Source of the DNA: a virus
Lineage: Duplodnaviria > Caudoviricetes
IMG/VR virus record: IMGVR_UViG_3300047560_001024
Span: 1 to 57,610 of that record
Length of the DNA stretch: 57,610 bases
Strand: one strand, 5' to 3'
Shown here one piece after another: positions 1 through 20,198 of this stretch. Position numbers and translations under genes: made by a program. Under the pieces are notes generated by a model. That model was not told where the DNA came from and did no database searches. It was given only the letters and a program-made list of their open reading frames with translations. Position 1 is the first letter of the stretch, and the number at the start of each line of letters is the position of its first letter.

Positions 1-2
1 AT

Positions 3-209
3 CTGGTTCTTGTGGAACCCGGAAAGAGCTTTGTTCGAGTTATCCAATCTATTGGACGAGGTATTAGAAAGGCAGAAGATAAGGACTTTGTACAAATCTG
101 GGATATTACGAGTTCCTGTAAATTCGCTAAACGACATTTAACACAACGCAAGACTTTCTATAAGGAAGCTAACTACCCGTTTGACATTGAAAAACTTACA
201 TATAAGTGA
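3..209 (+). CDS. uvsW: UvsW-like SF2 DNA helicase, C-terminal part (5' truncated by window)
   Basis: Motif VI-like IQSIGRGIRK followed by DITSS..KFAKRHLTQRKTFY; frame open from window start. Confidence 0.85.
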   Translation: MVLVEPGKSFVRVIQSIGRGIRKAEDKDFVQIWDITSSCKFAKRHLTQRKTFYKEANYPFDIEKLTYK

Positions 210-215
210 TAAAAT
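187..215 (+). promoter_or_regulatory. sigma70-type promoter, probably leaderless
   Basis: TTGAAA(187-192)-17 nt-TAAAAT(210-215) with extended TG; ATG 6 nt downstream at 222. Confidence 0.7.
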
Positions 216-221
216 ATAACT

Positions 222-722
222 ATGAGAATACTTACCTTAGACAATACTTTCTATAACTTAGAAACACTACCCGAAGAGGTAGATGATTTGCGCTTTGCTA
301 TACTTGACAACAGTAACACACAAAATGTAGACTATCATTATATCCCTCTTATCTTTTTAGAATCATTCAACAGTCCTGCATTAGTACTACGCATTGGTGA
401 TAGAACAATTAAGATGCCAGTTGATTGGCAGATACTTATCGGCGAACCTGAAATGGGTGACTTAGAAACATTACCGTTGACAAGTATCAACGACAGAGGG
501 TTCAAAGCATTTGAGTTTAATCCCTTGAGCGCATTCAGACCTAGCTTTCAAGACATTGAGATTGTAGATATCTATCACGATGTAACTTGGTATGCACCTA
601 GATTGAAGAACGGGCAGTTCTTATGTGTGCCCATTGATGACGGAGAGAAACCTAGATGTGTTTACTTTGTCAAAGAGATTAGTAGAAATTGTGAAATTGT
701 AGACTATCAACAGGCATTCTAA
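222..722 (+). CDS. hypothetical protein, possible inactive Hint-fold
   Basis: 166 aa beta-rich ORF; RILTLDN, LRIGDRTIKMPVDWQIL and WYAPRLKNGQFL echo Hint blocks without catalytic residues. Confidence 0.7.
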   Translation: MRILTLDNTFYNLETLPEEVDDLRFAILDNSNTQNVDYHYIPLIFLESFNSPALVLRIGDRTIKMPVDWQILIGEPEMGDLETLPLTSINDRGFKAFEFNPLSAFRPSFQDIEIVDIYHDVTWYAPRLKNGQFLCVPIDDGEKPRCVYFVKEISRNCEIVDYQQAF

Positions 723-1318
723 TGGCAACAAAGAAACCAGCAGTACCGACAGACGAAAAACTAGAGAAACAAGACTTTGAGTTATTCAAAGCACTTGATG
801 CTTTGGATCGTAAAGATTACAAGTACTTGGACAACTTAACAGAAGAACAACAAAAGAAGTTTGTCCCGTACATGATGACGCATTGGATGAGTACTATCAA
901 GGGCAACGGTGAGTTGGCAGCATATTATGTAATGAACACTGAGTATGCGGCAAATAAAAATCTTTTCAATGAACACGTACAAAAGCATCCCAAGCTACAG
1001 TGGATGATGCTGTGTGCAAGTAGCCCTGGTGTAGGTAAACAATTCCATCAATGGATACCTCACTTGTCTGCTAAGGTAGCAACGTTAAAAGAAACACCTA
1101 AATCAAAGGATGTTAAAGAGTACTACACAAAAATTTACCCTAAGACAGATGCAGATACTATTGATGCTCTAAGCGAAGCGTTCATTGAGGAACACAAAAA
1201 GAAAGTCTATTTGGCTAAGAAGTTCCCTGAACTAAAATTAACTGATATTGAAACCCTATCATTGCTAGTTACTGATGAAGAAATCAAACAATACGAGCGA
1301 GAACTCGGTAACAATTAA
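722..1318 (+). CDS. clamp loader small subunit (T4 gp62-like)
   Basis: 198 aa; FVPYMMTHWMS...AANKNLF...HPKLQW...KQFHQWI resembles the gp62 pattern; partner gp44-like at 49338. Confidence 0.55.
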   Translation: MATKKPAVPTDEKLEKQDFELFKALDALDRKDYKYLDNLTEEQQKKFVPYMMTHWMSTIKGNGELAAYYVMNTEYAANKNLFNEHVQKHPKLQWMMLCASSPGVGKQFHQWIPHLSAKVATLKETPKSKDVKEYYTKIYPKTDADTIDALSEAFIEEHKKKVYLAKKFPELKLTDIETLSLLVTDEEIKQYERELGNN

Positions 1319-2000
1319 TCCAGCAAAGTATAGCTGTGAGTTTTGTAATCGAGGGTTCTCCAGAGAAAAAACTATTGTCTCACATATTTGCGAGACAAAA
1401 TCACGCTGGCTAAACAGGGACAACAAAGGCAATAGACTAGGGTTTCAATCTTGGTTGCAGTTTTATCAAAAGAACTCAATGAGTAAGACTAAGAACAAGA
1501 CTGTTGAAGAATTCATTCGCAGTCCTTACTATACTGCTTTTGCAAAGTTTGGTTCTTATTGTGCAGATGCTAATGTTATAAACGTAAGCAGATATGTCGA
1601 TTGGCTACTAAAGAATCAGATTAAACTTGATGTTTGGAATACTGATTCTACCTATACCCGTTTCTTAATTGAGTACCTTAGGGTTGAGGATGCCTTTGAT
1701 GCGATACACCGTAGTGTAGAATATTGTATCTCCCAAAGTGAGAACGAAAGTATTCAACCCAAAGATGTGTTACGGTACGGCAACAGCAACCGAATCTGTC
1801 ATGCCATCACAACGGGCAAAATAAGTCCATGGATGTTGTATTGCAGTGACAGTGGTATCCATTTTCTAGAGACATTAAATGAAACCCAAGTTAAAATAGT
1901 ATCTGATTACATTAATCCAGAACAATGGGCATTGAAGTTTCACCGTGAACCAGAACTTAAAAAACAAATCAACGACACCCTCACATTGGCGGGGTACTAG
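1275..2000 (+). CDS. hypothetical protein with N-terminal zinc finger
   Basis: CEFC-x12-HIC motif; 241 aa. Confidence 0.75.
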   Translation: MKKSNNTSENSVTINPAKYSCEFCNRGFSREKTIVSHICETKSRWLNRDNKGNRLGFQSWLQFYQKNSMSKTKNKTVEEFIRSPYYTAFAKFGSYCADANVINVSRYVDWLLKNQIKLDVWNTDSTYTRFLIEYLRVEDAFDAIHRSVEYCISQSENESIQPKDVLRYGNSNRICHAITTGKISPWMLYCSDSGIHFLETLNETQVKIVSDYINPEQWALKFHREPELKKQINDTLTLAGY

Positions 2001-2184
2001 AGTTCGCCTTGATTGGCGTGATGGGCGTGACGATACAGAAGCATGGAATGAAATCTGTGCTTGGGCCATTGAACAATATGGAATGCCTGGTACAAAGTTT
2101 TCTTGGCATCCAATGATTGATTATATGGATTTTTATTTCTATGACGAAAAAGATGCTATTCATTTTAGCTTGAGGTGGTTATGA
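1945..2184 (+). CDS. FxLRW-family small protein
   Basis: AWAIEQYG; ends FYFYDEKDAIHFSLRWL; GTG start. Confidence 0.8.
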   Translation: MNQNLKNKSTTPSHWRGTRVRLDWRDGRDDTEAWNEICAWAIEQYGMPGTKFSWHPMIDYMDFYFYDEKDAIHFSLRWL

Positions 2185-2408
2185 ATTCATTACAACGCAG
2201 ACAACATAAACGAAAAACTGAACATACTATTGTCCTAAGAAACGAAACTGAAAAATACTATCAGTTCGACATGAAGATAGAAAAGGCTAAGAAGTTTTGT
2301 AAAAGAAAATGCAAGGGCTTTTGGATGCATGAAACTGACTGGAACAAAGTTACCTTTAGATTTCAAAAAGAAAGCGATGCAGTATATTTTGGATTGATGT
2401 GGCTATGA
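2181..2408 (+). CDS. FxLRW-family small protein
   Basis: ATGA overlap, GAGGTG SD; ends FRFQKESDAVYFGLMWL. Confidence 0.85.
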   Translation: MNSLQRRQHKRKTEHTIVLRNETEKYYQFDMKIEKAKKFCKRKCKGFWMHETDWNKVTFRFQKESDAVYFGLMWL

Positions 2409-2842
2409 ACTTAAATCACTTAACAGATAATGAACTTATTGACCACGTCATAAAGTATGACACTGATCCTATACGAGTACGACTTGCTACTCACATGCAA
2501 CGAGTGCATGGTGCAATCATCGATGATTTGGTATTTGCCGGCATGGATGATGTGTGGTGTACTTTTAATAGTGTTGTCAATGGTGGAGAATATCATTCAG
2601 GCGATTACATCAGACACCTTGAAAATGAGATTGAGTACCTGCAGAACGAAGTAAGTCAGAATCTCAGAGAGATTGAAAACTTAAAAGCACGAACTATCAT
2701 GGATTTGATTGGTGAACTCAAACAAGAGATTAAGACAGCAGAGTGGTGCAGGGACGAAGCAATCAGAGAACGAAACCATGCTAAAGAGCATGAAAGTATT
2801 ATGAAAAATAAACTTGACATGTGGGCAATATTGAACCGATGA
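2405..2842 (+). CDS. hypothetical coiled-coil protein (non-family insert in array)
   Basis: ATGA overlaps at both ends; heptad-like C-terminal half. Confidence 0.75.
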   Translation: MNLNHLTDNELIDHVIKYDTDPIRVRLATHMQRVHGAIIDDLVFAGMDDVWCTFNSVVNGGEYHSGDYIRHLENEIEYLQNEVSQNLREIENLKARTIMDLIGELKQEIKTAEWCRDEAIRERNHAKEHESIMKNKLDMWAILNR

Positions 2843-3060
2843 GTTACGCTGATAGTTTAATTCAAAAGTGGTATGAAGAAAAAGAGATAAATGAAACATA
2901 CTGGCCCTATCAACATCAAATTAAAGACTGGAAACATATCTATACTGTTGAAAGATTTTGCTATGATAATTTTAAGAGTAAGAACTGGCGCAACCGCGGT
3001 CGTACATTTGCATTCAAGCGCAAACAAGATTATGAATGGTTCTTGTTGAGGTGGCAATGA
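2839..3060 (+). CDS. FxLRW-family small protein
   Basis: ends FAFKRKQDYEWFLLRWQ. Confidence 0.85.
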   Translation: MSYADSLIQKWYEEKEINETYWPYQHQIKDWKHIYTVERFCYDNFKSKNWRNRGRTFAFKRKQDYEWFLLRWQ

Positions 3061-3305
3061 TAGACTTAGACCTTGTAAAAACGATAGTAGCTAGGCAGGG
3101 ACAGAATGAGTTTCTGAAAAACCCTATCGTATTACCACCCGAAGCAAAAGTTGTAACTGGTAAAATCAAAGAAGATGCTTACTTGCATTTTCTAGAAACT
3201 AAATGCGGTGTAGAGGTACTGTTGTCAGATTATCATAACGAAATAATTGGGTACAATGTTATTGATGAAAAGAAGTTTTCTTGGTTCGTATTGAGGTGGA
3301 GTTGA
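3057..3305 (+). CDS. FxLRW-family small protein (IDExK subtype)
   Basis: HFLETKCG; ends YNVIDEKKFSWFVLRWS. Confidence 0.85.
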   Translation: MIDLDLVKTIVARQGQNEFLKNPIVLPPEAKVVTGKIKEDAYLHFLETKCGVEVLLSDYHNEIIGYNVIDEKKFSWFVLRWS

Positions 3306-3583
3306 TGGAATATTTTTACGGTGGCGGCGGAAACAATCGCCCAGTTTTTATATACAGATTCAAAGTGAAAAGTTGTACTCCTACAATGTACAGCTGGGCT
3401 GAAGCCTACCCAGAGAAGGGACCCTTCAGTCGTTTTCATATTGAGTGGCAAAGTGTTTACAGTAAGATGGATAGCCCTAGAGAATATGATGTAATACAGT
3501 TTGAGCATAGTGATGCCGCTAAAGTATTCAGAATCGCATTTGCAGGTGAGTATGAAGATATATCTATGGACGGATATAGATGA
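3305..3583 (+). CDS. divergent FxLRW-family-like protein
   Basis: TGATG overlap; IQFEHSDAAKVFRIAF plus short extension. Confidence 0.7.
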   Translation: MEYFYGGGGNNRPVFIYRFKVKSCTPTMYSWAEAYPEKGPFSRFHIEWQSVYSKMDSPREYDVIQFEHSDAAKVFRIAFAGEYEDISMDGYR

Positions 3584-3894
3584 AAATAGTATGGGGCAGA
3601 AGCATAAACTTCAACATAGAGCTACACAAGGCACGTATGAGTTACAACGGCGCAAACAAATTTAATCCTAGTCCAGGAAAGCAGTACATGGAATACACAA
3701 TCATAACCGATGGTGCAGACTGCTACCCTTGGCACGAATACTTTGCTATCTTGCCACGCAAGACAATTAGTGGTACTCGCATCTTCTGGGAGAAAGCATA
3801 CAAGCGTAAAGTATGGGTAGTGTGGGGCACAGGCTTTCATATGGAACCTGAAACTCAATACGCAACAGCATTTGACTTATTGACGCACGAATGA
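3580..3894 (+). CDS. hypothetical protein (non-family insert)
   Basis: ATGA overlaps both ends; WHEYFAILPRKTISG..IFWEKAYKRK. Confidence 0.75.
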   Translation: MKIVWGRSINFNIELHKARMSYNGANKFNPSPGKQYMEYTIITDGADCYPWHEYFAILPRKTISGTRIFWEKAYKRKVWVVWGTGFHMEPETQYATAFDLLTHE

Positions 3895-4166
3895 AAACTA
3901 GAAACGAATTCACCCGAGTAGAGCACTTCTCTAAATCTAAAACATGGGTTCATTGGAAAAACATGAAAAAGATGAAAGAGATTTATGAGAAACAGTATAC
4001 TGGTTACTATGAGCCAACCACTACCGGCAAGGGCGATAGCTTTGATAAGTGGATTGAAAAGGAATGTGGTATAAAAATATTGTTTGATCCTTACGGCAAC
4101 GTACTAATGGACTTTGATATTATCGATGAAGGTAAGTACATGATGTATGTACTTAAGTACCTATGA
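3891..4166 (+). CDS. FxLRW-family small protein (IDExK subtype)
   Basis: KWIEKECG; ends FDIIDEGKYMMYVLKYL. Confidence 0.8.
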   Translation: MKTRNEFTRVEHFSKSKTWVHWKNMKKMKEIYEKQYTGYYEPTTTGKGDSFDKWIEKECGIKILFDPYGNVLMDFDIIDEGKYMMYVLKYL

Positions 4167-5344
4167 AGATACTTGTGTTAGGTAGAATACCCTCAGCACA
4201 TTTTATGTCTATGCTATTAGCTAAGTCTAATACTGTATATCATTATGGGGCAAACATATCGTATCAGGTTACAGACAACTACATCCCTATTCCTACTAAA
4301 GAAACATATGGCTACTTGATTGGATGTATTGATAAGATAGATTTCGATTTGATTGTCCCTATGCAAATTGAATATCAAATGTCGCATGAATTACGTGAAG
4401 CAATTGATAAGAAGAACATACCCTGCTTCATGCCGTCATACGAGAATACTATGCTTGAGTGGGATAGAGTTAAAACTAAAACAATGTTAGATGAACTTAA
4501 CATACCCACACCTAAGTATTCTGTTATGAATAAGGATGAGTTGTTAAGTAAGTTTACAACTTTGCCTCGCCCCTTTGTATTAAAATGTAACATGTTCTGG
4601 AATGAGGGTGCTCAAACAGTGATTGTCACTGACGATAACTACCAAGCTGAATTAGTTAAGTGCAAAGATAATAATGATGTTGATACCTACGTGATAGATG
4701 AATATATCACTGGGAACGAAATATCATACCATGCTGTATGTAATGGTTCTGAATTCGTCTATATCGGTTCTGCACGAGACTACAAGAAGTTCGAAAACGG
4801 AGATAAAGGATTCAACACAGAAGGAATAGGGTCGTATAGTAACAGTGACCGTTTCTATATCGTTGACCAGTATGCACAAAAAATTGTAGATTACTTGTCA
4901 CAGAAGGGCACGCCTTATGTTGGTATACTTTATCTAGGTATAATTATTGATAAAGACAACGTTCCGTTTGTTCTTGAAATTAATACAAGATTTGGGTGCC
5001 CAGAATCATTGGCTATTCTTTCTACCATAATTACTGATATGTCAACTGTGATGTACAATGCCGCAATTGGTAAAAAGATTCCAGAAATCACGTTCACCGA
5101 TAGTAAAGCAGTTACAGTAATGGTTGTGCCCAAAGATTATCAATATGACCCTGATGCTAATAAACCAATCTTTAATGACATACCGGTAGATATAGTGTAT
5201 AATAGACCCGGATACAGTAGTTGTCACGCATTTACCGTAACTGGTAGCACAGTAGATGAGGCTAGTAAGAAGCTATATTCTTACTTAGATTCGCAGTCTA
5301 TGGGTGACTATGTATATCGCACTGATATAGGTTTTATGAAATGA
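4163..5344 (+). CDS. divergent PurD-like (phosphoribosylamine-glycine ligase family) ATP-grasp protein
   Basis: MKILVLG start; ARDYKKFENGDKGFNTEGIGSYS; PYVGILYLG; LEINTRFGCPE; terminal YRTDIG. Confidence 0.85.
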   Translation: MKILVLGRIPSAHFMSMLLAKSNTVYHYGANISYQVTDNYIPIPTKETYGYLIGCIDKIDFDLIVPMQIEYQMSHELREAIDKKNIPCFMPSYENTMLEWDRVKTKTMLDELNIPTPKYSVMNKDELLSKFTTLPRPFVLKCNMFWNEGAQTVIVTDDNYQAELVKCKDNNDVDTYVIDEYITGNEISYHAVCNGSEFVYIGSARDYKKFENGDKGFNTEGIGSYSNSDRFYIVDQYAQKIVDYLSQKGTPYVGILYLGIIIDKDNVPFVLEINTRFGCPESLAILSTIITDMSTVMYNAAIGKKIPEITFTDSKAVTVMVVPKDYQYDPDANKPIFNDIPVDIVYNRPGYSSCHAFTVTGSTVDEASKKLYSYLDSQSMGDYVYRTDIGFMK

Positions 5345-5784
5345 AATTACGTCTTAAAGCACGTTGGCGACAATATCTTGCTCACCGCAAGTTAGCAAAG
5401 AGTGGCTATCTTTCTTGGCGTGCGTATCGTCATAACCGTGACCCTGATATTGTGCGTTACGCTGACAAAGTAAGTGACTTCTACAAAAACTACAAATATG
5501 TGTACATGTGTGAGCATGGCACAGCACATTATGCTTACAGCGTAGTACATGATTGTGGTCCAGGTGGATTAGTATTCGGTTATGAAGAAATGCGTGATTG
5601 GTGTGAAAGTAAATGTAGATTCAAGTATCGTGTAGACATTCATAGAGGGTTGAAACAAACTGGTCTAGGTATTAACGGTGAAGAATATCCTGAATGGTAC
5701 TTTAACGATATCGGTGGAAGAGACATTGTATTCTTTGCTTTCATGGATGAGCAAGATTACTTGATGTTTAGGTTGAGGTGGTGA
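5341..5784 (+). CDS. FxLRW-family protein, long form
   Basis: EMRDWCESKC; ends FFAFMDEQDYLMFRLRW. Confidence 0.85.
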   Translation: MKLRLKARWRQYLAHRKLAKSGYLSWRAYRHNRDPDIVRYADKVSDFYKNYKYVYMCEHGTAHYAYSVVHDCGPGGLVFGYEEMRDWCESKCRFKYRVDIHRGLKQTGLGINGEEYPEWYFNDIGGRDIVFFAFMDEQDYLMFRLRW

Positions 5785-6170
5785 TGACACAATATTACGA
5801 TCCTAAAATAGCCGTTAATGTAACAGCAACGGCTCAGAAAATACTCATGCCTATGATTAGGAATTTGTATCCACAAATGTTAGCCCAATCTATTCTAGGT
5901 GTACAACCTATGACAGGATCAGTGGGCGAGATTTTTACCATGCGAGCCAGCTACAAACCACAATCAAAATACAAATTCAGTCGTGCTAAATGGTACTACG
6001 CAGACCATCGCTATGAAGATTATGATGCTATCATAGCATGGTGTACTGAACAGTTTGGACCGCGCCCTAAACACCCTGATGCATGGACACGATGGGTTGA
6101 TGAACACATTGACCGTATTAAATTCCGTGACGAAAAAGATTATGCTTGGTTTATGTTGAGGTGGGGATGA
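5784..6170 (+). CDS. FxLRW-family protein fused to a major-capsid-protein (Gol-region) fragment
   Basis: ILMPMIRNLYPQMLAQSILGVQPMTGSVGEIFTMRASY then AWCTEQFG...IKFRDEKDYAWFMLRWG. Confidence 0.85.
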   Translation: MTQYYDPKIAVNVTATAQKILMPMIRNLYPQMLAQSILGVQPMTGSVGEIFTMRASYKPQSKYKFSRAKWYYADHRYEDYDAIIAWCTEQFGPRPKHPDAWTRWVDEHIDRIKFRDEKDYAWFMLRWG

Positions 6171-6430
6171 TGCAAGAACCTTATTTTGTTAGAGAAAGAT
6201 TCATCGTTCCTGTAGGCAGACTGTGGGCAGAACCTTGGCCTAAGTATTTTGACAACTTTTGGAACACTTGTTCTGTTACTGCTAGATTGAATGGTTGGGC
6301 TCCTATTACTGTTGCTAACTATGAACTTAAACCATTAGGTGGTAAACTGATTCAAACTAAAACACAAGGCTGGTACTTACGTTGGGATGATGAAAAGCAT
6401 CACGCATTTTTTGTATTGAAATGGTCATGA
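6167..6430 (+). CDS. FxLRW-family small protein
   Basis: ends YLRWDDEKHHAFFVLKWS. Confidence 0.8.
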   Translation: MMQEPYFVRERFIVPVGRLWAEPWPKYFDNFWNTCSVTARLNGWAPITVANYELKPLGGKLIQTKTQGWYLRWDDEKHHAFFVLKWS

Positions 6431-6663
6431 AAATTGAAATTAAATACGTGCCAGGCAAAAGACCATATCATATTGACGTTCAATGGCGCACAACTAATGA
6501 TTGGAGCTCGTCTCAGGCGTATACATGGTGCATGAAAACATTCGGTCATAGAAACGAGAAGTATGACAACCCTCGTTGGTATGCTAACACTAGATACTTT
6601 ACAGGTGACTTTAAGTTTCGTGACAAAAAAGATGCTGAATGGTTCTTGTTGAGGTGGGGATGA
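6427..6663 (+). CDS. FxLRW-family small protein
   Basis: TWCMKTFG...PRWY...FKFRDKKDAEWFLLRWG. Confidence 0.85.
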   Translation: MKIEIKYVPGKRPYHIDVQWRTTNDWSSSQAYTWCMKTFGHRNEKYDNPRWYANTRYFTGDFKFRDKKDAEWFLLRWG

Positions 6664-6845
6664 ATAGAAAACAAGCGAAATTCAGAGTTCCGTTTAAACG
6701 CACTAACAACTGGTGGGGCGGTGACTGGGCCGACATATCTAATTGGTGTCGCACCAATAATATAGGTCGTTGGGATTACATGAATGAAGAATTTTGGTTT
6801 ACGGAAGAACAAGATTATGTATGGTTTAAGTTGAGGTGGTTATGA
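6660..6845 (+). CDS. FxLRW-family small protein
   Basis: NWCRTNNIGRW...FWFTEEQDYVWFKLRWL. Confidence 0.85.
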   Translation: MNRKQAKFRVPFKRTNNWWGGDWADISNWCRTNNIGRWDYMNEEFWFTEEQDYVWFKLRWL

Positions 6846-7039
6846 AGCAATATGGAATAGCTATTGAGAGTTGGCCTGCTACACGTAAAGTAGATGTTAA
6901 ATGGTGGCTGCTTGAAAACTTTGGACCTGAAGACTCTCCTACACAAAAGGGGCGTTGGGGCTGTGCGTATGACTATGGTTTAGACAATATCTATATGAAT
7001 GAAGATGTTTTTATAATGTATCAATTGAGGTGGAGTTAA
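6842..7039 (+). CDS. FxLRW-family small protein
   Basis: WWLLENFG...GRW...IYMNEDVFIMYQLRWS. Confidence 0.8.
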   Translation: MKQYGIAIESWPATRKVDVKWWLLENFGPEDSPTQKGRWGCAYDYGLDNIYMNEDVFIMYQLRWS

Positions 7040-7242
7040 TGGAACATCAACGATACGGACAATATACTAGTAACTGGACTAATGTTATTGTAGACCCAGC
7101 ATGGCGCGAACCAATCAAAGGTGAACATATTGCTTGGCTAAAAGCACACGAAGGTGGGTACTATCATCTTCATCGTAATGCCACTGCTGTTAAGTTTGAG
7201 CGCAAAGAAGATGCTGAATGGTTTATACTGAGGTGGCTATGA
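7039..7242 (+). CDS. FxLRW-family small protein
   Basis: TAATG overlap; ends VKFERKEDAEWFILRWL. Confidence 0.85.
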   Translation: MEHQRYGQYTSNWTNVIVDPAWREPIKGEHIAWLKAHEGGYYHLHRNATAVKFERKEDAEWFILRWL

Positions 7243-7556
7243 TTACAAGTATTTGGTATCACATAGAAGATAATAGACCCACTAAAACAGGTTATTACCT
7301 TGCTTATAAGAAGCCGTCTCTGGGAGACGATAGTGAAGGGTACGGTGTATATTACTGGGATAATGAGTATACCGATTGGAGGGAGTCGGCGGCCCCTCAT
7401 TCTTATGGTATGAGAGTTACTCTTTGGTCAGAACTACCGGCACATGATCCATATGATTCTACTACACATGCACCCACTATCGCAGAAGTTGATGCTTGGA
7501 ATAATGTCGTAGATGCTATTGACAAATTTAATATGATAAAAGAATTGGGTAGATAA
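7239..7556 (+). CDS. hypothetical protein, DUF551-like pattern (non-family insert)
   Basis: WYHIEDNRP..TGYYL...VTLWSELP resembles WI.V..RLP...VTHW.PLP. Confidence 0.7.
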   Translation: MITSIWYHIEDNRPTKTGYYLAYKKPSLGDDSEGYGVYYWDNEYTDWRESAAPHSYGMRVTLWSELPAHDPYDSTTHAPTIAEVDAWNNVVDAIDKFNMIKELGR

Positions 7557-7903
7557 TGCTAGAAACGATAAACAGACTGTTAAAGCTATTCGGTGGCAAG
7601 GTTCAAGAACAAGCAACCGAAAAGTTTACTAAACCCGGTGACCCATTTAGCCCATTCAAAATAGAAAACGGGATGGTTGGGTTCAAGCCTTACCTAATCG
7701 TTGAGAATCAAAATGAAACCGTGTTATACTCTAATCATAATTGCATAGCGATTGATGTTAGCCCGAATGTTGAACAATGGATACTTACTCAACCTCCCCA
7801 CATGTGGAAGTATGCAGAAGAAACAGATGGTTGTCATTATGCTATGACACGAATTTTAGTGAATGAAGAATTATTAACCTGGATGACATTAAGATGGCTG
7901 TAA
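7556..7903 (+). CDS. FxLRW-family protein
   Basis: VEQWILTQP..MW; ends ILVNEELLTWMTLRWL. Confidence 0.8.
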   Translation: MLETINRLLKLFGGKVQEQATEKFTKPGDPFSPFKIENGMVGFKPYLIVENQNETVLYSNHNCIAIDVSPNVEQWILTQPPHMWKYAEETDGCHYAMTRILVNEELLTWMTLRWL

Positions 7904-8169
7904 AAACTGTTGAAGATAATTTGATGGAAGATATGATGGATGAAGTTGGCAGACAAATTGCCAAAGAGATAGACGAAGGAATCATGTCAACTATGCTAGT
8001 TCAAACTGGCTGGACACCTGTTCAATTTTATTTTAAGAATGGAGAACAAGCAGTTGATATTCAATTCTGGCTGAACGACACTTGTAAGGGTAAGTATCGT
8101 AGATTAGGTAGTGAATACTTGTTTGAACACAAACAAGAAGCAGAGTGGTTTATACTACGATGGGCATGA
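7894..8169 (+). CDS. FxLRW-family protein with acidic N-terminal helix
   Basis: EDMMDEVGRQIAKEIDEGIM; ends YLFEHKQEAEWFILRWA. Confidence 0.8.
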   Translation: MAVKTVEDNLMEDMMDEVGRQIAKEIDEGIMSTMLVQTGWTPVQFYFKNGEQAVDIQFWLNDTCKGKYRRLGSEYLFEHKQEAEWFILRWA

Positions 8170-8423
8170 ATATAAGTGAAGGTCGTGTATACGGGTCACG
8201 CTACTATACCGTCGAACCTGAAATCTCTTGGGATCCTACTAATGATTGGGGTAGTATAGACAAGTGGGCAAGAATGGAAAAATGGTGTATCGATACATAC
8301 GGTTCGACTGGAGAGATATGGGGTGACGACCCTGCCATCTTACATCGTTGGTATATGAATGGTGCTAAATTTTGGTTTAGAGAGAAAAAAGATTTAGAAT
8401 GGTTTATGTTAAGATGGCAATGA
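8166..8423 (+). CDS. FxLRW-family small protein
   Basis: KWCIDTYG...HRWY...FWFREKKDLEWFMLRWQ. Confidence 0.85.
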   Translation: MNISEGRVYGSRYYTVEPEISWDPTNDWGSIDKWARMEKWCIDTYGSTGEIWGDDPAILHRWYMNGAKFWFREKKDLEWFMLRWQ

Positions 8424-8683
8424 AAGAAATTAAAGAACTAGGTAGTTTCAGCTATTGGACTGAGCATTATTACGGTAGCCAGCGAAATATCACTACTATT
8501 AGTTGGAAAGGCAAGGGCGAAGTTGATAGTAGAGAAATTTATAAATGGTGTAAGAAAACATTTGGTAAGAGTGGCTACAGAGAAGATATCGAAGATAGTT
8601 ATTGGGTTGACAATACTGAGTTTGGAGAAATCATGCTATGCAAAGATGAATTCGTTACGGCGTTTCTATTGAGATGGACATGA
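8420..8683 (+). CDS. FxLRW-family small protein
   Basis: KWCKKTFG; ends KDEFVTAFLLRWT. Confidence 0.85.
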   Translation: MKEIKELGSFSYWTEHYYGSQRNITTISWKGKGEVDSREIYKWCKKTFGKSGYREDIEDSYWVDNTEFGEIMLCKDEFVTAFLLRWT

Positions 8684-8898
8684 GTGTCACGATTAAACTT
8701 AACGGTAGATTAGGCCCACATGAAGAACAGTGGTTAGCAAAGAACGTTGGCCCTCGTTTGCACTACCTACACAACAGCGTAGGTGGACAAGGTTGGATCG
8801 CTAGACATGACTGGACTAAAGATAATACTATGCAATGGACTCTTACGTTAGAGAATGAAAGCTATGCTAGTTTCTTTATATTACAGTTTCCGCAATGA
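8680..8898 (+). CDS. FxLRW-family small protein (divergent)
   Basis: QWLAKNVGP; ends LTLENESYASFFILQFPQ. Confidence 0.8.
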   Translation: MSVTIKLNGRLGPHEEQWLAKNVGPRLHYLHNSVGGQGWIARHDWTKDNTMQWTLTLENESYASFFILQFPQ

Positions 8899-9113
8899 TA
8901 GAAGTTAAGGCACTTGATTGGATCCCCAGTCAGGGAATAGAAGTAGTCAATGCTCTCAGAGAAAAAGGCTACGTTATGGGCAGAGACTTCGAATGGGAAT
9001 ATCATAAACCCAAATATGATGACATTACTTACGAAGCAGTGTATAATAGATATATCCTATTCCGATTCTATGAAGATGAATTAGCAACATGGTTTAGTTT
9101 AAGGTATCTATAA
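8895..9113 (+). CDS. FxLRW-family small protein
   Basis: ends FRFYEDELATWFSLRYL. Confidence 0.85.
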   Translation: MIEVKALDWIPSQGIEVVNALREKGYVMGRDFEWEYHKPKYDDITYEAVYNRYILFRFYEDELATWFSLRYL

Positions 9114-9388
9114 TGGCATTATCAACAAGTACGGGAACATTTGCACCATATACAGGTTACTCTGCGCCTGAGGATCGTAGCGGCGTTGAACAAACATCGA
9201 GAGGCCGTGTCCTTTACAAAATCGATTTGAATTATCGAAAGATTAATGAAGTAGAACATGTCAAGTGGTGCCGCAGAAACTTAGGTGATAGGGGTGACGG
9301 CTGGGACTTTTGGTTAGCAGGTGGATTGTTGTATATAGAGTGCTGGGACGATAAGGCTAAGTTCACTTATGAAATGTGGCAAAACTAA
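9113..9388 (+). CDS. divergent FxLRW-family-like protein
   Basis: KWCRRNLG.RG.GWDF; ends IECWDDKAKFTYEMWQN. Confidence 0.75.
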   Translation: MALSTSTGTFAPYTGYSAPEDRSGVEQTSRGRVLYKIDLNYRKINEVEHVKWCRRNLGDRGDGWDFWLAGGLLYIECWDDKAKFTYEMWQN

Positions 9389-9389
9389 T

Positions 9390-9683
9390 ATGACAGAGTT
9401 AGTAACAATAAACGGCATCATCCTATCAATACAACAGTATATGAAGATAGGTGATAAAATCATTTTCTACGAAGCACCTGAACTTGGATCAGGTATTTCT
9501 ATCATATCTGAGGCACAACGACTAGATTACAAAGGTGATGGGTTTACATGTACGTTTCCTTGGCCTCAAAATGACAAAGCACTGTTCAAGCAATTTATGG
9601 ATAGTGTGTACGAAAATCGCAACAATCCTACAGTGAAGGATCAGTTGGAAAAGTTAAAAATAGTAATGGAGTTAATAAGATAA
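9390..9683 (+). CDS. hypothetical protein containing a virion-repeat-like beta module
   Basis: ATG at 9390; VTING...Y...GDKIIFYEAP..G..ISI and YKGDG.T.TF. Confidence 0.7.
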   Translation: MTELVTINGIILSIQQYMKIGDKIIFYEAPELGSGISIISEAQRLDYKGDGFTCTFPWPQNDKALFKQFMDSVYENRNNPTVKDQLEKLKIVMELIR

Positions 9684-10234
9684 TGGCAGATATAATGATT
9701 GACATTGAGAGTTTAGATACAACTCCAAACTGTGTGATATTGACAATTGGTGCAGTATTGTTCGACCCTAAAGGTAACGGCATTATTGATAAACTAGAAT
9801 TGAGACCCACTATCGAAGAACAAACTGATATCTTCAACCGTTCTATTAATCCTGATACTTTGCGTTGGTGGAGTGAACAATCTGAAGCCGCCCAAGAAGA
9901 AGCATTAGGCGATAGAGACAGAGTATCATACAAAGAGTGTATGGATACACTATACAAGTGGTGCTGGAAGTATAACAATGGTAAAGTATGGAGTAACGGT
10001 GCAAGTTTCGACATTGTAGTTATGGAATCAGCATGGCGAGACCATAATCAATTAGCACCGTGGAACTTCTGGAACGTTAGAGACACACGAACTATCTATG
10101 ATATTTGTAATGTCAAACTTAAAGACGGTGGACATACAACAAGTCACAAGGCTGTAGAAGACGCAGAACGACAAGCTATTGTTGTTCAACAAGCATTTAA
10201 GAAATTGATTAAAGCAGAATTAGTTACACCATGA
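9683..10234 (+). CDS. DEDDh 3'-5' exonuclease (DexA/Rv2179c-like)
   Basis: MIDIESL (ExoI), WSNGASFD (ExoII), RDTRT, HKAVEDA (ExoIII). Confidence 0.9.
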   Translation: MADIMIDIESLDTTPNCVILTIGAVLFDPKGNGIIDKLELRPTIEEQTDIFNRSINPDTLRWWSEQSEAAQEEALGDRDRVSYKECMDTLYKWCWKYNNGKVWSNGASFDIVVMESAWRDHNQLAPWNFWNVRDTRTIYDICNVKLKDGGHTTSHKAVEDAERQAIVVQQAFKKLIKAELVTP

Positions 10235-10815
10235 AGTTTCAGTCAGACATAGATATTGACTTTGGTAACCGTGATGATATTCTAAAACATATCAAGCATA
10301 TACCTGCGGCTATGCGTAGAGTTCATCCTGTTCGTAAACATGCGACTGGTATCTATGTTACTGAGATTCCATATGACAGTGATAACGACATTGCTAACTT
10401 AGATTATACAGTAGCAGAAGAACGAGGATATGTTAAGATTGATATGCTGAATGTTCACGTGTACGAGCAAGTGCGTGACGAAGAACATTTGATTGAATTG
10501 ATGGATGAACCCGATTGGTCTATGCTTAAAGATAAAAAGATTGTGGAACAGTTGATTCACTTATCTAATCATTACGACAGCCTTCAGAAGATGCCTGAGC
10601 CAGTTGATACTATGCCCAGACTAGCTATGTTTTTAGCTGTGATTCGACCTGCAAAGAAACATCTTATCGGACAATCATGGAAGACAGTTGCTAATTCTGT
10701 GTGGGAAAAAGAATCAGACGGCTATCACTTTAAGAAAAGTCATAGTGTTGCTTATGCTCAGTTAGTGGGAGTTCATATGAATTTGTTAAGGCAGACGCTT
10801 AACAAGAGTAATTGA
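10231..10815 (+). CDS. mini DNA polymerase III alpha (DnaE)-like protein, catalytic/C-terminal half
   Basis: SDIDIDF, KHATGIY, GYVKIDMLN, AVIRP, GYHFKKSHSVAYA in DnaE order within 194 aa. Confidence 0.85.
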   Translation: MKFQSDIDIDFGNRDDILKHIKHIPAAMRRVHPVRKHATGIYVTEIPYDSDNDIANLDYTVAEERGYVKIDMLNVHVYEQVRDEEHLIELMDEPDWSMLKDKKIVEQLIHLSNHYDSLQKMPEPVDTMPRLAMFLAVIRPAKKHLIGQSWKTVANSVWEKESDGYHFKKSHSVAYAQLVGVHMNLLRQTLNKSN

Positions 10816-11166
10816 TTTGCGCTTACTCTTGCGCTTATTGAGTTCAAGCATACTACAGATTGGCCCATGAATGATGTTTAAACTCTTGTTATTGAACGTT
10901 CGTAGATAGGGTCTAAAGACAGTCCATTCTTCTTTTAAGAACATATTGATTGGGACTAATCTGTTTGATTCCCACCACCAGATATCTCCTAGTTCTAAAA
11001 ACTTCTCTCTAAGTTCGGGGCCGATGATTGCACCGTAGTCATAGATAGTGGTAACTATATCGTCCCTGTTTTGGACAATGCCAACGTAATCCTGTCCTGC
11101 ATAGGAGCAAACAGTGATAAACGGGTGGTTTTCGCTAAGGCGCTTGAAAAATTCGTTGTGTATCAT
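10786..11166 (-). CDS. hypothetical protein
   Basis: 126 aa ORF preceded by GATAAATA on minus strand (11188-11195). Confidence 0.75.
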   Translation of the reverse strand: MIHNEFFKRLSENHPFITVCSYAGQDYVGIVQNRDDIVTTIYDYGAIIGPELREKFLELGDIWWWESNRLVPINMFLKEEWTVFRPYLRTFNNKSLNIIHGPICSMLELNKRKSKRKSITLVKRLP

Positions 11167-11187
11167 TAAAAATAGACGTACTAGGAA

Positions 11188-11231
11188 TATTTATCACCTG
11201 GGCAAACCCAATATATTATTTGTCATAAATA
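11188..11231. promoter_or_regulatory. divergent pair of T4-like late promoters
   Basis: GATAAATA on minus (11188-11195) and ATAAATA on plus (11225-11231). Confidence 0.65.
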
Positions 11232-11249
11232 CAGCATAGGAGCCAATTC

Positions 11250-12002
11250 GTGTACTCAACATCAGTTTACTTTCAAATACCAAGACAAACCGTAGTGTTG
11301 TACTTTGGCGATTCAACAAGGAGATACCAAACCGTGTACGCTAAAAATCTAACATTACATAAGGGCGTTGATAACAGACTTCAATTCCAATTCATTAACC
11401 AGGAACAGAAGCCTGTGGATATCACAGACAAAGAGATTACTTGCAGAATCATCAGCCATGACGGGACAGTTGAATTAATCCGCAAAACATTGACACCATT
11501 GTTACCGCTCAAGGGTCTAGCAGAACTACAACTTCACGCAGATGATTTGCACGATATTGAGTCTCAACCTGGATACTACTCACTTGAAATCCCTGAAGGT
11601 GAGTTTGACTTACCGGTGTTTGTTGACTCTAATTCTGGTGCTAGAGGTACTATCAAAGTTGTTGATAGTGTTAAGCCAAAACATCAATCAAGTGATTTAC
11701 TAACTATCGAATCTCACCGTGAAGCAGTTCATTATGCTCCTGTAACATACTATAGCGGAGAATACTTAACTGATGGTAACCCATTGTTAACTACTCAAGT
11801 GTACTTTGAAGATTATACTGGTAACGTGCAGTTCGAAGGTACTACACTAACAGATAGTGATTGGTATGAGATTGGCGAGCCATATGTCTACGATACACAG
11901 AATGGCACTGTTTATTATACCATCGAAGGTTTTCACGCTAGAGTTCGTGTTAAGTTTGCAGACAGTGCAAACGGTAACGCAACTAAAATTTTAGTAAGAT
12001 AA
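11250..12002 (+). CDS. putative virion structural protein (two beta domains)
   Basis: GTG start with AGGAG SD and late promoter; KGVDNRLQFQFINQEQKPVDIT; C-terminal domain resembles ORF 57309. Confidence 0.7.
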   Translation: MYSTSVYFQIPRQTVVLYFGDSTRRYQTVYAKNLTLHKGVDNRLQFQFINQEQKPVDITDKEITCRIISHDGTVELIRKTLTPLLPLKGLAELQLHADDLHDIESQPGYYSLEIPEGEFDLPVFVDSNSGARGTIKVVDSVKPKHQSSDLLTIESHREAVHYAPVTYYSGEYLTDGNPLLTTQVYFEDYTGNVQFEGTTLTDSDWYEIGEPYVYDTQNGTVYYTIEGFHARVRVKFADSANGNATKILVR

Positions 12003-17898: not shown

Positions 17899-17932
17899 GA
17901 TAAATAGTATAATCACATAAAGATTATACTAT
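17899..17932 (+). promoter_or_regulatory. late promoter overlapped by start-codon-occluding hairpin
   Basis: GATAAATA 17899-17906; ATAGTATAATC (17904-17914)/GATTATACTAT (17922-17932). Confidence 0.7.
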
Positions 17933-20198
17933 GGCTATCGTACAAATCTCAAAAATCATTCACAGAACCGGTGCAAACGTAGACTTGCCTCAATTAGATG
18001 CAGGCGAATTTGGTTATGCAACGGATCAACAACGACTATACATCGGTGACGACTATATCGCTCACCCTCCTGTATCTGAAAGTTCTACTACACAAACTGA
18101 GGTGTTAACTGAGCATAGTACGCTAAGTTTCAACAAGATAGGTGGAGTAGCGAACACATCATTAACTTTAAATGATGTTCAAACTGGACAAATTTTAGTA
18201 GCATCCGGCAACGTAAGTGTCGGTAATGCTTGGACTAACTGGGACGGAGAACTAATCGGCCCAGATGATATCAAACTACAACTAGGTGCAGCAGAGACAC
18301 TTTCAATTAACGGTGGTTTGAACGGTTACTTCCTACAAACAGATGGTCAAGGTAATTTAACTTGGACAGATTCAGTAGGTGAAGTTACTATTCAAGGTAC
18401 ACCCGGTGGTTCAAACACACAATTGCAATTTAATGACGCCGGTGACTTTGGTGGCAGCGCATATTTAACATATAACAAAGTAACACACGCACTAACAGTT
18501 GACGGTGAGTTCAATGCTACTGGTAATATCAACGGTAACATTTCAGGAACTCATTTTGGTCCTGTAGGTAACGCAACAGTACGTTCAAGTGGTGAGTTCA
18601 CTACAGTTACAACAGTTTCTACAGCTATCATCGGTGGTAATATTACTGCTGCAAATGTAAATTCTACTGGTGAAGTAGTATCTTCAGGTAATGTTACCGC
18701 ACAGAACTTAGTGACAGCCGGAGAAGCAAACGTTGCAACATTAAATGTTACTGGCAATGTTGTTACATCATTGTTACCTGACACTGATGGTACAAAAGAC
18801 TTAGGTTCTTTCTGGCAAAGCTGGGGTAACCTATATATCAAGGGTGGAAATATTACATTAGGTAGTCGTGTACTTTCAACTGACGACTTTAACTTAATTG
18901 TTGATGGTGGGTTAACCGCGTCAAACGCTACGTTTGATACTAGTGTGTCGGCAGCTACATTAACTGGTACATTGACCACACACGCACAACCAAATATTAC
19001 TAGTGTGGGTACGTTAACATCATTAGCTGTTACTGGTGTATCTAATTTGGGTAGCAATGTCGCTAACATCAAATTGGGCGGCGGTGGCAATGGCTTCTTG
19101 TTGGGTACAGATGGTTTGGCAAATCTACGTTGGGTACCTAATACTGAACTATTGCGTAAGCCTTCAGGCTCTAACACACAGATTCAATATAATGATGGCG
19201 GCGACTTCGGTGCAGACTCAGGTCTTGTATATGACAAGTCTACTAGTACACTAACAACAAGTTCAATACAACTTGCTGGTACATTAAGAACAATCGGTAA
19301 CATTACTACTGCTCAAGTTAACAGTAACGGAACAATCACCGGCACAGTTATCACAGCAAATACACGCTTTGTAGGTAACGGTGCAAACTTGTCACAACTT
19401 AACGGTGCTAACGTCACTGGTACGGTAGCTAACGCAACCACAGCCGTGTTTGCTGGTACTGTTACTACAGGTAATCAACCTAACATTACTGGAATTGGTA
19501 CTCTAAGTAGTTTAAGTGTCACTGGTACAGTGGCTGCTGGTAACGCAAGCGTTGTCAACACGTTGACTACTAACAAGATTCAAACATCTTCTATTGTTGG
19601 TAACTTAATTCCAGACGCAAGCGGTACTCAAAGTTTAGGTACAGCCGCAAAGCGTTGGAAAGAATTGTATCTTGCTGGAACAACTATTTACTTAGGAACA
19701 AGTGTTCTACAGGATACTGGTGGTGCTCTAACTACAAACATAATTGGGTCTAACTCTGCATACGTAGGCGATGCAACATTAAGCACACAGATTGATGTAA
19801 TGTCTATCGTAAGCAGCACAAACAACTTATTTGTTTCTACAGACGCTGCCGGCGTAAGTTTATTATCAAAAGCTAACCAATCTGGTTCTGGTGTTTACAT
19901 CATGGATAGCACAAATACTGTGTCTGTACTAATTGATGACGGTACGGGAGCTGCAATTGAAACAGTTAAAGTAAATAACACTGGGTTGCTACCGGCAACA
20001 GGTGATGTGTACGATTTGGGTGCCGATGACAGACCTTGGAACAAAGCAGTTATCACCACAACAAAGACTAAAACACTTGACTTGAATTTAGAAGACGATT
20101 CAGGTACATTCAGTATGTTTGCAAATGTTAATGGTATCTTTGTTCGTAACAACATGACCGATGCGGTGTTCTCTGTCAACCTAACTCCGGTGGTCTAA
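17931..20198 (+). CDS. tail fibre/virion fibre protein
   Basis: N-terminal RTG...LPQLDAGEFGYATD..RLYIG anchor; GSNTQxQxND and QPNITxxGTLxSL repeats; G/N/T-rich. Confidence 0.85.
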   Translation: MAIVQISKIIHRTGANVDLPQLDAGEFGYATDQQRLYIGDDYIAHPPVSESSTTQTEVLTEHSTLSFNKIGGVANTSLTLNDVQTGQILVASGNVSVGNAWTNWDGELIGPDDIKLQLGAAETLSINGGLNGYFLQTDGQGNLTWTDSVGEVTIQGTPGGSNTQLQFNDAGDFGGSAYLTYNKVTHALTVDGEFNATGNINGNISGTHFGPVGNATVRSSGEFTTVTTVSTAIIGGNITAANVNSTGEVVSSGNVTAQNLVTAGEANVATLNVTGNVVTSLLPDTDGTKDLGSFWQSWGNLYIKGGNITLGSRVLSTDDFNLIVDGGLTASNATFDTSVSAATLTGTLTTHAQPNITSVGTLTSLAVTGVSNLGSNVANIKLGGGGNGFLLGTDGLANLRWVPNTELLRKPSGSNTQIQYNDGGDFGADSGLVYDKSTSTLTTSSIQLAGTLRTIGNITTAQVNSNGTITGTVITANTRFVGNGANLSQLNGANVTGTVANATTAVFAGTVTTGNQPNITGIGTLSSLSVTGTVAAGNASVVNTLTTNKIQTSSIVGNLIPDASGTQSLGTAAKRWKELYLAGTTIYLGTSVLQDTGGALTTNIIGSNSAYVGDATLSTQIDVMSIVSSTNNLFVSTDAAGVSLLSKANQSGSGVYIMDSTNTVSVLIDDGTGAAIETVKVNNTGLLPATGDVYDLGADDRPWNKAVITTTKTKTLDLNLEDDSGTFSMFANVNGIFVRNNMTDAVFSVNLTPVV

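Follow-up and report, generated by a model that had tools for sequence, protein, structure and literature searches.

Array of overlapping small genes

We analyzed a 57,610-nt stretch of phage DNA (Caudoviricetes; IMG/VR record IMGVR_UViG_3300047560_001024), referred to below as the window, and focused on a chain of small genes at positions 1945 to 9388, many of which encode proteins ending in Leu-Arg-Trp (LRW). The record is the entire assembly for the source DNA and is rated about 15% complete. The chain consists of 24 plus-strand open reading frames (ORFs), which are named here by their first position and summarized in Table 1. All 23 internal junctions overlapped: 17 by 4 nt (ATGA), 5 by 1 nt (TGATG or TAATG), and one by 10 nt, so that 22 of the 23 were stop-start overlaps of 1 or 4 nt between co-directed genes. 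The sole nearby ATG of one junction sits 10 nt within the upstream gene. The initial annotation, made from the sequence alone, had described 24 consecutive ORFs without an intergenic base, which was borne out; the gap-free run extends wider than it had stated, from 222 to 10815 with a single free base at 9389. The junction was also the largest direct-repeat family found by a mechanical repeat finder in positions 1–12000 (9 copies of 59 nt).

Thirteen of the 24 ORFs end exactly in LRW, with or without one further residue, and five more end in LMW, LKY, LKW, LQF, or LRY. The wider motif F/Y/M-x-L-[RKMQ]-[WYF] is present in 18 of the 24, and both counts of the initial annotation were reproduced, as was the richness in Trp that it had noticed (5.8% in members of the family described below vs 0.98% in 19 long non-array ORFs). 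The isoelectric point (pI) of the members ranged from 4.7 to 9.8, and half of them were acidic (pI 4.7–5.8). Conservation was limited to the core of the domain; the N-termini and loops varied.

Most ORFs of the array belong to one protein family

We built a profile hidden Markov model (HMM) from the last 45 aa of 10 members, as the initial annotation had suggested, and ran it against the 479 six-frame ORFs that the window contains; the E values of individual members come from this search. The HMM recovered its 10 members and also 2181, 3891, 8414, 8895, and 6842, so that 15 array ORFs were found at E ≤ 0.02; nothing else in the window was, and the best non-array match had an E value of 0.21. 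Leave-out alignment using hhalign supported 8674 (88.6%) and 3891 (71%) across about 50 columns. The alignments of 6167, 8895, and 7556 were confined to the last 21 columns, and 2405, 3580, 7239, and 9390 showed no similarity to the family by hhalign. By a fair count from these comparisons, 15–17 members are clear and 3–4 doubtful, and 3 small cassettes and one enzyme are unrelated. The earlier claim of about 20 paralogues thus holds as one family for 15–17 ORFs, and its figure was generous, since 3–4 ORFs are tail-only or borderline and 4 are unrelated.

The structure of 8160 was predicted by AlphaFold2 from an 89-sequence alignment, and the model, a confident one (pLDDT 82.9, pTM 0.73), has the order beta-beta-alpha-beta-beta-alpha. 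In the model of 6167 (pLDDT 74.9), an alpha-beta-beta-alpha core is retained and the N-terminal part differs. Two of the 19 members were modelled, both from the family alignment, which favours likeness. The models suggest a domain core of helix, beta-hairpin, and helix, to which a hairpin at the N-terminus is usually added, making up a sheet of four strands. Leu-Arg-Trp and one further residue would form the end of the last helix. The HMM, the copies in relatives (see below), the model of 8160, and the leave-out alignments agree with the earlier proposal that one small domain was expanded into a repertoire.

Two caveats apply. The tail-only ORFs 6167, 7556, and 8895 may be unrelated ORFs that gained the tail; if units recombine at the tail (see below), a foreign ORF could gain it without homology. 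In addition, the structural matches of the 8160 model appear generic. VIA-align gave best Z scores of 4.3–5.4, values common for unrelated folds, with an rmsd of 2.2–3.7 over 52–70 residues. Foldseek against the PDB gave nothing at E ≤ 1e-3 for the models of 8160 or 6167. The closest structures were two-layer alpha/beta sandwiches, among them DCoH and ACT as well as translation-factor and ribosomal domains, and some members are strongly basic (e.g. 2181, pI 9.8), which would suit a nucleic-acid-binding fold and an array of small transcription or translation regulators. The element order and size are like those of DCoH/pterin dehydratase and ACT sandwiches, but there is no sequence relation and no shared ligand or catalytic residue, and the scores are in the chance range. 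Half of the members are acidic, and no DNA- or RNA-binding family was matched in Pfam or PHROGs. We consider the regulator explanation improbable.

No Pfam or PHROGs family was matched above the cut-off by any of the 19 members, except for Gp23 at the N-terminus of 5784. Similarly, 10 external members had no curated family match apart from Gp23, and the best match of a PDB sequence search had an E value of 0.45. Fold matches in BFVD were uncharacterised proteins of uncultured phages only (best E 1.7e-4), and an Atlas look-up returned viral hypothetical clusters only, none with a common Pfam family. Word searches of the literature, which cannot find a motif, revealed no publication describing the family. 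The initial annotation had recognized no characterised family, and these searches agree with it, giving nothing specific beyond the Gp23 piece.

A profile of the 19 members matched 4329 cluster representatives at E ≤ 1e-3 among 1.84 billion proteins. Among the best 150 representatives, 138 end in [LIMVF][RK][WF] followed by 1–3 residues. With the same profile, each 20-kb locus of five distinct relatives yielded 15–22 copies, which all lay on one strand. Contigs of uncultured viruses, up to 364 kb in length, make up the relatives; one of them has terminal repeats and is complete, and another is rated complete. Genome-wide copy numbers, which come from these two, were 28 (17, 10, and 1) and 31 (18, 12, and 1), mostly in two arrays each. 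Tandem two-domain fusions also exist (P0022, P0050, and P0160). Judged from these searches, the family is an undescribed, phage-only small domain.

Separately, an external helicase-like protein of 1176 aa (P0068) showed seven matches to the family profile (E 2.3e-9). Its best stretch covers the first-helix part only (profile positions 27–51), and its repeated unit is about 90 aa. It may represent a distant link or a chance match of the Trp-Cys...Phe-Gly helix.

Table 1 Features of the array and its candidate promoter. Percentages with hhalign are the values of that program.
Feature	Position	Strand	Remarks
Candidate sigma-70-like promoter	187..215	+	TTGAAA-17-TAAAAT, TG before -10; upstream of first gene of the gap-free run (ATG 222)
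Member 1, 79 aa, LRWL	1945..2184	+	HMM E 9e-19; GTG start
Member, 75 aa, LMWL, basic (pI 9.8)	2181..2408	+	E 3.7e-4, not in HMM training; orthologues P0007-P0012
Non-member cassette, 145 aa, acidic	2405..2842	+	hhalign 0.2%; orthologues in 6 of 7 distinct relatives tabled, at other positions
Member, 73 aa, LRWQ	2839..3060	+	E 2.4e-20; 22-nt exact tail string in common with 6421
Member, 82 aa, LRWS, alpha-beta-beta-alpha subgroup	3057..3305	+	E 1.3e-15; orthologues 82-87% identical in L002, L006, L011
Borderline member with C-terminal extension, 92 aa, no LRW	3305..3583	+	hhalign 10%, E 0.003, 53 columns
Non-member cassette, 104 aa	3580..3894	+	hhalign 0.3%; 98% aa identity in L005, dS 0.23 (flanks dS >2.4)
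Divergent member, 91 aa, LKYL	3891..4166	+	E 0.0067; leave-out hhalign 71%, 46 columns
Cargo gene, PurD-like ATP-grasp enzyme, 393 aa	4163..5344	+	Pfam GARS_A 2.8e-28; among relatives compared, in L014 only
Member with basic N-terminal extension of ~95 aa, 147 aa, LRW	5341..5784	+	E 9e-13; orthologues include P0083
Member, N-terminus (~5826-5954) copies T4-type major capsid protein stretch	5784..6170	+	Pfam Gp23 2.2e-12
Tail-only member, 87 aa, LKWS	6167..6430	+	leave-out hhalign 88.5%, last 21 columns only; model pLDDT 74.9
Member, 80 aa, LRWG	6421..6663	+	E 2.2e-14; orthologues 65-92% in 10 loci
Minimal member, 61 aa, 13% Trp, LRWL	6660..6845	+	E 9.8e-20
Member, 65 aa, LRWS	6842..7039	+	E 0.019; 97% aa identity to L006 (neighbours there 49-83%)
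Member, 67 aa, LRWL	7039..7242	+	E 1.9e-17
Non-member cassette, 105 aa, acidic	7239..7556	+	hhalign 0.3%; weak phrog_27290 match
Tail-only/borderline member, 115 aa, LRWL	7556..7903	+	leave-out hhalign 28.7%, last 21 columns
Member, N-terminal ~50 aa weakly like second capsid segment	7894..8169	+	E 5e-20
Archetypal member, 85-87 aa, LRWQ	8160..8423	+	AlphaFold2 pLDDT 82.9, pTM 0.73
Member, 89 aa, LRWT	8414..8683	+	E 0.0074; 82% identical orthologues in L014, L002
Divergent member, 74 aa, LQFPQ	8674..8898	+	leave-out hhalign 88.6%, 51 columns
Divergent member, 72 aa, LRYL	8895..9113	+	E 0.015; leave-out hhalign 93%, last 21 columns
Borderline last member, 91 aa, EMWQN end	9113..9388	+	leave-out hhalign 35%, first helix only

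Most LRW tails contain a probable Shine-Dalgarno site

We examined the codons of the L-R-[WY] tails in the window and found that Arg is encoded by AGG in 10 of 14. Extending the set to the window plus 17 loci gave 140 unique tails, 118 of them with the motif. In the motif tails, 62 of 85 Arg codons were AGG; the 20 long ORFs outside the array used it for 8 of 300, and the interior of array genes for 3 of 89 (odds ratio 98, p 5e-43). Leu was encoded by TTG in 69 of the 118 tails vs 35% elsewhere, and exactly one residue followed Trp in 111 of the 118. The tail codons TTG AGG TGG place GAGGTGG 5 nt before the next ATG at 10 window junctions, and the resulting string is TTGAGGTGG-NN-ATGA, with the start overlapping the stop. 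A string of the GAGGTGG type is a 6–7-base complement of the 3' end of 16S rRNA at the textbook spacing. The other genes of the window have sites of the AGGA/GGAG type 6–10 nt upstream, and therefore the host reads Shine-Dalgarno sites. The rare AGG spelling, together with GAGGTGG 5 nt before ATG, indicates that the LRW motif is dual-coded, serving as the ending of one protein and as the Shine-Dalgarno site of the next gene.

The remaining tails were compared in the same way. Where Arg is AGA or CGA, the Arg-Trp codons hold an ATG in the downstream frame; those of 7556 contain the sole nearby ATG of the next gene. Just two LR[WYF] tails have no start next to them on the downstream side; their Arg codons are CGT and CGA, and two cases prove little. 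AGG use did not differ between tails with and without an overlapping ATG (55 of 76 vs 7 of 9), a comparison in which most of the "gap" tails actually have a GTG start or an ATG 1–3 nt off.

Several points weigh against this assignment. Four of the 14 window tails use AGA or CGA and have no Shine-Dalgarno site, and the junctions following non-members also lack one. Thus the embedded site aids the next gene but is dispensable; a single transcript, its timing, and the coupling are predicted. Gene conversion of shared tail strings could also keep AGG, and in its strict form this would mean that TTG AGG TGG is merely copied among tails by concerted evolution and that the motif is purely structural. 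Tail strings of up to 22 nt are indeed common to paralogues whose bodies are about 24% identical, and the same chain contains junctions without any Shine-Dalgarno site. Against this stand the use of AGG in 62 of 85 tails despite saturated synonymous sites across phages, the fixed spacing to the next start (one residue past Trp in 111 of 118), the 6–7-nt match to the anti-Shine-Dalgarno complement at the textbook spacing, and the two non-AGG tails that have no adjacent start. Concerted evolution as the only cause is improbable in our estimation; concerted evolution as such is compatible with a Shine-Dalgarno role, the two not being mutually exclusive.

With the dual-coded motif as the preferred reading, one polycistronic RNA would carry the array genes, and a terminating ribosome would be handed on to the next gene by termination-reinitiation, aided by the embedded site. 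A comparable arrangement was reported for overlapping gene pairs of E. coli, in which removal of the intragenic Shine-Dalgarno site substantially cut reinitiation in 4 of 5 pairs (Huber et al. 2019, PMC6728339); as described there, such sites often, not always, raise reinitiation at stop-start overlaps. The array and these pairs have in common co-directed genes, 4- or 1-nt overlaps, and a Shine-Dalgarno site inside the upstream coding sequence at the usual spacing. Unlike in those pairs, the site of the array is locked in a Leu-Arg-Trp protein motif of a multigene family and repeated at more than 10 consecutive junctions, the same string marks the points of cassette exchange, and coupling is predicted. 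The architecture and the junction logic very probably hold.

Probable exchange of cassettes at the junctions

We compared the array with the corresponding loci of the relatives. The left genes (222, 722, and 1275) were colinear in the relatives that reach them (L014, L002, L005, L006, and L008/L009), as were the right genes (9683, 10231, 11250, and 12051) where reached. Inside the array, gene order and content differed by gain, loss, and reordering of whole cassettes. For example, in L002 the block 6167–6845 comes after the orthologue of 1945, and 7556 and 3580 are located elsewhere. This agrees with the initial annotation insofar as an array invariant across relatives would have spoken against it. 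The identity was mosaic: 3580 is 98% identical to its counterpart in L005 and 6842 is 97% identical to that in L006, with neighbours at 40–80%. Synonymous divergence was likewise mosaic, with a dS of 0.23–0.5 in some cassettes and above 1–2.7 in the adjoining flanks.

The ends of blastn blocks were mostly located at the junctions. In 13 non-duplicate loci, 95 block ends fell within the array, and 69 of them were no more than 25 nt from a junction vs 15.7 ± 3.5 at random. What tempers this count is that such ends are partly expected there, since divergent N-termini stop alignments. The tails of non-adjacent paralogues share exact strings of 22, 17, 16, 16, and 14 nt, compared with at most 11 nt in interior controls; strings of at least 9 nt occurred in 42 of 171 tail pairs vs 2 of 171 interior controls. 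When aligned to positions 1–11000, contigs from four freshwater DNA runs showed joints between different junctions (e.g. 2184–6175, 6164–6825, and 3879–5353). These were not counted as support; their matching sides are just 21–43 nt at a likeness setting of 90%, and they may be the junction motif in other phages.

Since the start signals for the following gene lie in each unit, any unit could be inserted, deleted, or swapped at the shared 15–25-nt junction by short-homology recombination with expression intact. The nearest counterpart in the literature is the promoter-early stem-loop (PeSL) cassettes of T4-type phages, by which modules are shuffled in hyperplastic regions (Arbiol et al. 2010, PMC2839356). 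The array resembles PeSLs in that a variable region holds small non-essential genes bordered by a short regulatory repeat, and in that relatives differ by insertion, deletion, or replacement of whole genes at the repeat, as the 69 of 95 block ends indicate for the array. PeSLs are intergenic promoter-plus-terminator units that give each gene its own transcription signals. In contrast, the array has no intergenic DNA, its repeat is coding sequence plus a translation signal, and its units are mostly paralogues. No intergenic promoter with a stem-loop terminator was found between the array genes, and terminator-like sites on the plus strand were few and weak.

The repertoire is old and maintained

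Between paralogues of the window, identity does not exceed 45% and has a median of 24%; the duplications, which gave rise to about 15–19 of the 24 ORFs, are therefore old. Each paralogue has orthologues in related phages. The dN/dS ratio was 0.01–0.44 in all 50 computable orthologue pairs of the array, compared with 0.02–0.16 for flanking genes and 0.36 for the neighbouring small ORF 9390. For most pairs dS was saturated (>1), which counts against the precision of this analysis and makes many of the values rough; pairs with unsaturated dS (e.g. 6421, 6167, 3057, and 7556 vs L002) gave 0.13–0.19. The reading frames were intact in all relatives. These ratios indicate that the array orthologues are under purifying selection and are real genes that evolve faster than the core yet are maintained. 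The array is therefore better described as an old, maintained repertoire, and the word "hypervariable" of the initial annotation was dropped.

As cassette content varies among relatives, no single member is essential, and the ORFs might be mostly decaying or selfish filler riding a coupled operon. The low dN/dS in 50 of 50 pairs, including those with unsaturated dS, the intact frames in all relatives, and the size and conservation of the family argue against this, and we regard it as very improbable.

A diversity-generating retroelement was not detected in the window, which covers about 15% of the genome, so that an element elsewhere is possible: there was no RVT_1 match and no long near-identical repeat pair, only the junction repeats. 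A 755-aa ORF at 17931–20198 has at its start a Major-tropism-determinant N-terminal domain (Mtd_N, 3.4e-6), which is known to occur in a receptor-binding protein diversified by a retroelement.

Source phage, neighbouring genes, and candidate promoters

The DNA runs containing the stretch are labelled as freshwater metagenome, and no RNA run was among those listed. Encoded in the window are a DnaB-like helicase, a 3'-5' exonuclease, part of a DNA polymerase, and a tail-sheath homologue (29095–32649). The last is unusually long, at 1184 aa, and its match to the sheath C-terminal domain comprises the final ~100 residues only. Among cultured phages, nothing close was found by megablast of positions 1–12000 or tblastn of the 755-aa ORF, and tblastn of member 8160 and of P0014 gave nothing. 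With 5784 as the query, the capsid piece alone was matched (807 records, none covering 80% of the query). Since cultured matches are absent, the uncultured relatives reach up to 364 kb, and the runs are from freshwater, the window is assigned to a fragment of an uncultured freshwater jumbo myovirus-like phage. Rfam detected nothing in positions 1–12000, and no tRNA gene was found in the window.

The left neighbours of the array are conserved genes (222–2000). On the right lie replication genes: the exonuclease (9683), the DNA-polymerase piece (10231), and the DnaB-like helicase (13009). The initial annotation had named an early promoter at 187–215. This site matches 10 of 12 positions of a sigma-70-like consensus, with TG present, and is kept in L014 and L002 and partly in L009; the L005 row is unaligned. 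A sigma-70-like scan yielded 56 sites vs 40.4 ± 6.3 in shuffles. The location beside replication genes and the promoter-like site suggest expression before the virion genes. The candidate -10 box (207–224 region) ends 6 nt before ATG 222, and the first gene has no Shine-Dalgarno site; therefore, the first gene of the operon may be read from leaderless or nearly leaderless RNA. Two copies of another element, 70% identical over 47 nt, are within coding sequence, at 5160–5206 in the ATP-grasp gene and 9004–9050 in member 8895. No sigma-70-like sites of the region match better than those in the two copies (ATGACA-17-TATAAT, 11 of 12 positions), which may be internal promoters for downstream cassettes.

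Some individual genes showed further features. Member 1 (1945) has no ATG, and its only start is a GTG 56 nt inside the upstream gene. The GTG was kept in both relatives inspected (L014 and L002), and both frames are conserved across the overlap (1945–2000). The ATP-grasp gene (4163–5344) is flanked by ATGA overlaps on either side, and in one metagenome contig (run X8) position 3879 seems to be followed directly by 5353, with this gene and 3891 missing. No longer relatives of the non-member 7239 were found.

Capsid-protein pieces and possible roles of the proteins

Residues 15–70 of 5784 match Pfam Gp23. Residues 15–57 are identical at 20 of 43 positions (47%) to residues 59–101 of the true capsid protein of a complete relative, and residues 21–57 at 16 of 37 positions (43%) to residues 95–131 of T4 gp23. 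One complete relative has the capsid piece fused to two different subfamily domains, and 15 of the best 150 family representatives carry the capsid motif GVQxM. A second piece, in 7894, is modestly supported: a profile of the N-termini of 7894 orthologues matched capsid residues 195–218 of a relative (E 0.0034) as the first non-self match among 3929 ORFs, and Pfam Gp23 touches three of these orthologues below the cut-off. From these alignments, a capsid segment appears to have been copied in at least one member and probably in two.

In T4, a 29-residue region of gp23 called Gol binds EF-Tu and activates the Lit protease, and it is the most conserved part of gp23 according to a review (PMC3014915; see also PMC9712102). 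The gp23 stretch aligned with 5784 falls in the first quarter of gp23, in the region that the review calls most conserved. Unlike Gol, the cofactor of the e14 Lit protease via EF-Tu, the piece in 5784 sits on a separate small protein and not on the capsid protein. The aligned stretch presumably overlaps Gol, an overlap that depends on the residue range we take Gol to have.

These pieces would also suit accessories of head assembly, which hold or escort new capsid protein or enter the prohead and whose capsid segments dock capsomers, scaffold, or chaperonin. The match of 5784 to true capsid proteins, the weaker match of 7894, the GVQxM motif in 15 of 150 representatives, and the occurrence of the piece on two different subfamily domains in one complete genome are in line with such a role. 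Against it, capsid pieces are present on just 1–2 of the ~19 window members, and the array adjoins replication genes, with the structural module starting beyond ~17 kb. We rate head assembly as unlikely.

We prefer to view the proteins as small Trp-rich adaptor or binder modules that would be made before virion assembly. A constant scaffold would carry variable N-terminal segments and loops, some of them copying the phage's own major capsid protein, and members would act on host or phage proteins, different paralogues on different targets. The Trp-richness, the wide pI range, and the confinement of conservation to the core fit a constant scaffold with variable binding parts. The role as binders or in host interaction is a tentative proposal. 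The explanation as a whole, in which the array is a cassette array with coupled junctions and binder modules, within the accessory region of an uncultured freshwater jumbo myovirus, is one that we hold with moderate confidence.

A more specific version, which we judge rather unlikely, is that the array is a "bait on a scaffold" library: the domain would display N-terminal peptides copied from conserved late proteins, with the Gol-like stretch and the second major capsid helix as baits, and would serve as a phage decoy against capsid-sensing immunity. Made before the real capsid protein, the decoys would occupy EF-Tu/Lit-like or CapRel-like factors or sensors. If so, phages could exchange decoys as plug-in modules through the self-coupling junction.

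The junction logic is amenable to simple reporters, and the members with capsid pieces offer a concrete entry point to function. A single short string at the junction would have three uses: it would end the protein with its motif, bind the ribosome for the next gene, and form a joint for recombination. Such a string would make a gene array rearrangeable without loss of expression, a coding-sequence counterpart of the intergenic PeSL cassettes. The family is restricted to phages, counts thousands of sequence clusters, and reaches about 30 copies per genome, yet it has neither a name nor a solved structure, a sizeable blind spot in giant-phage biology.

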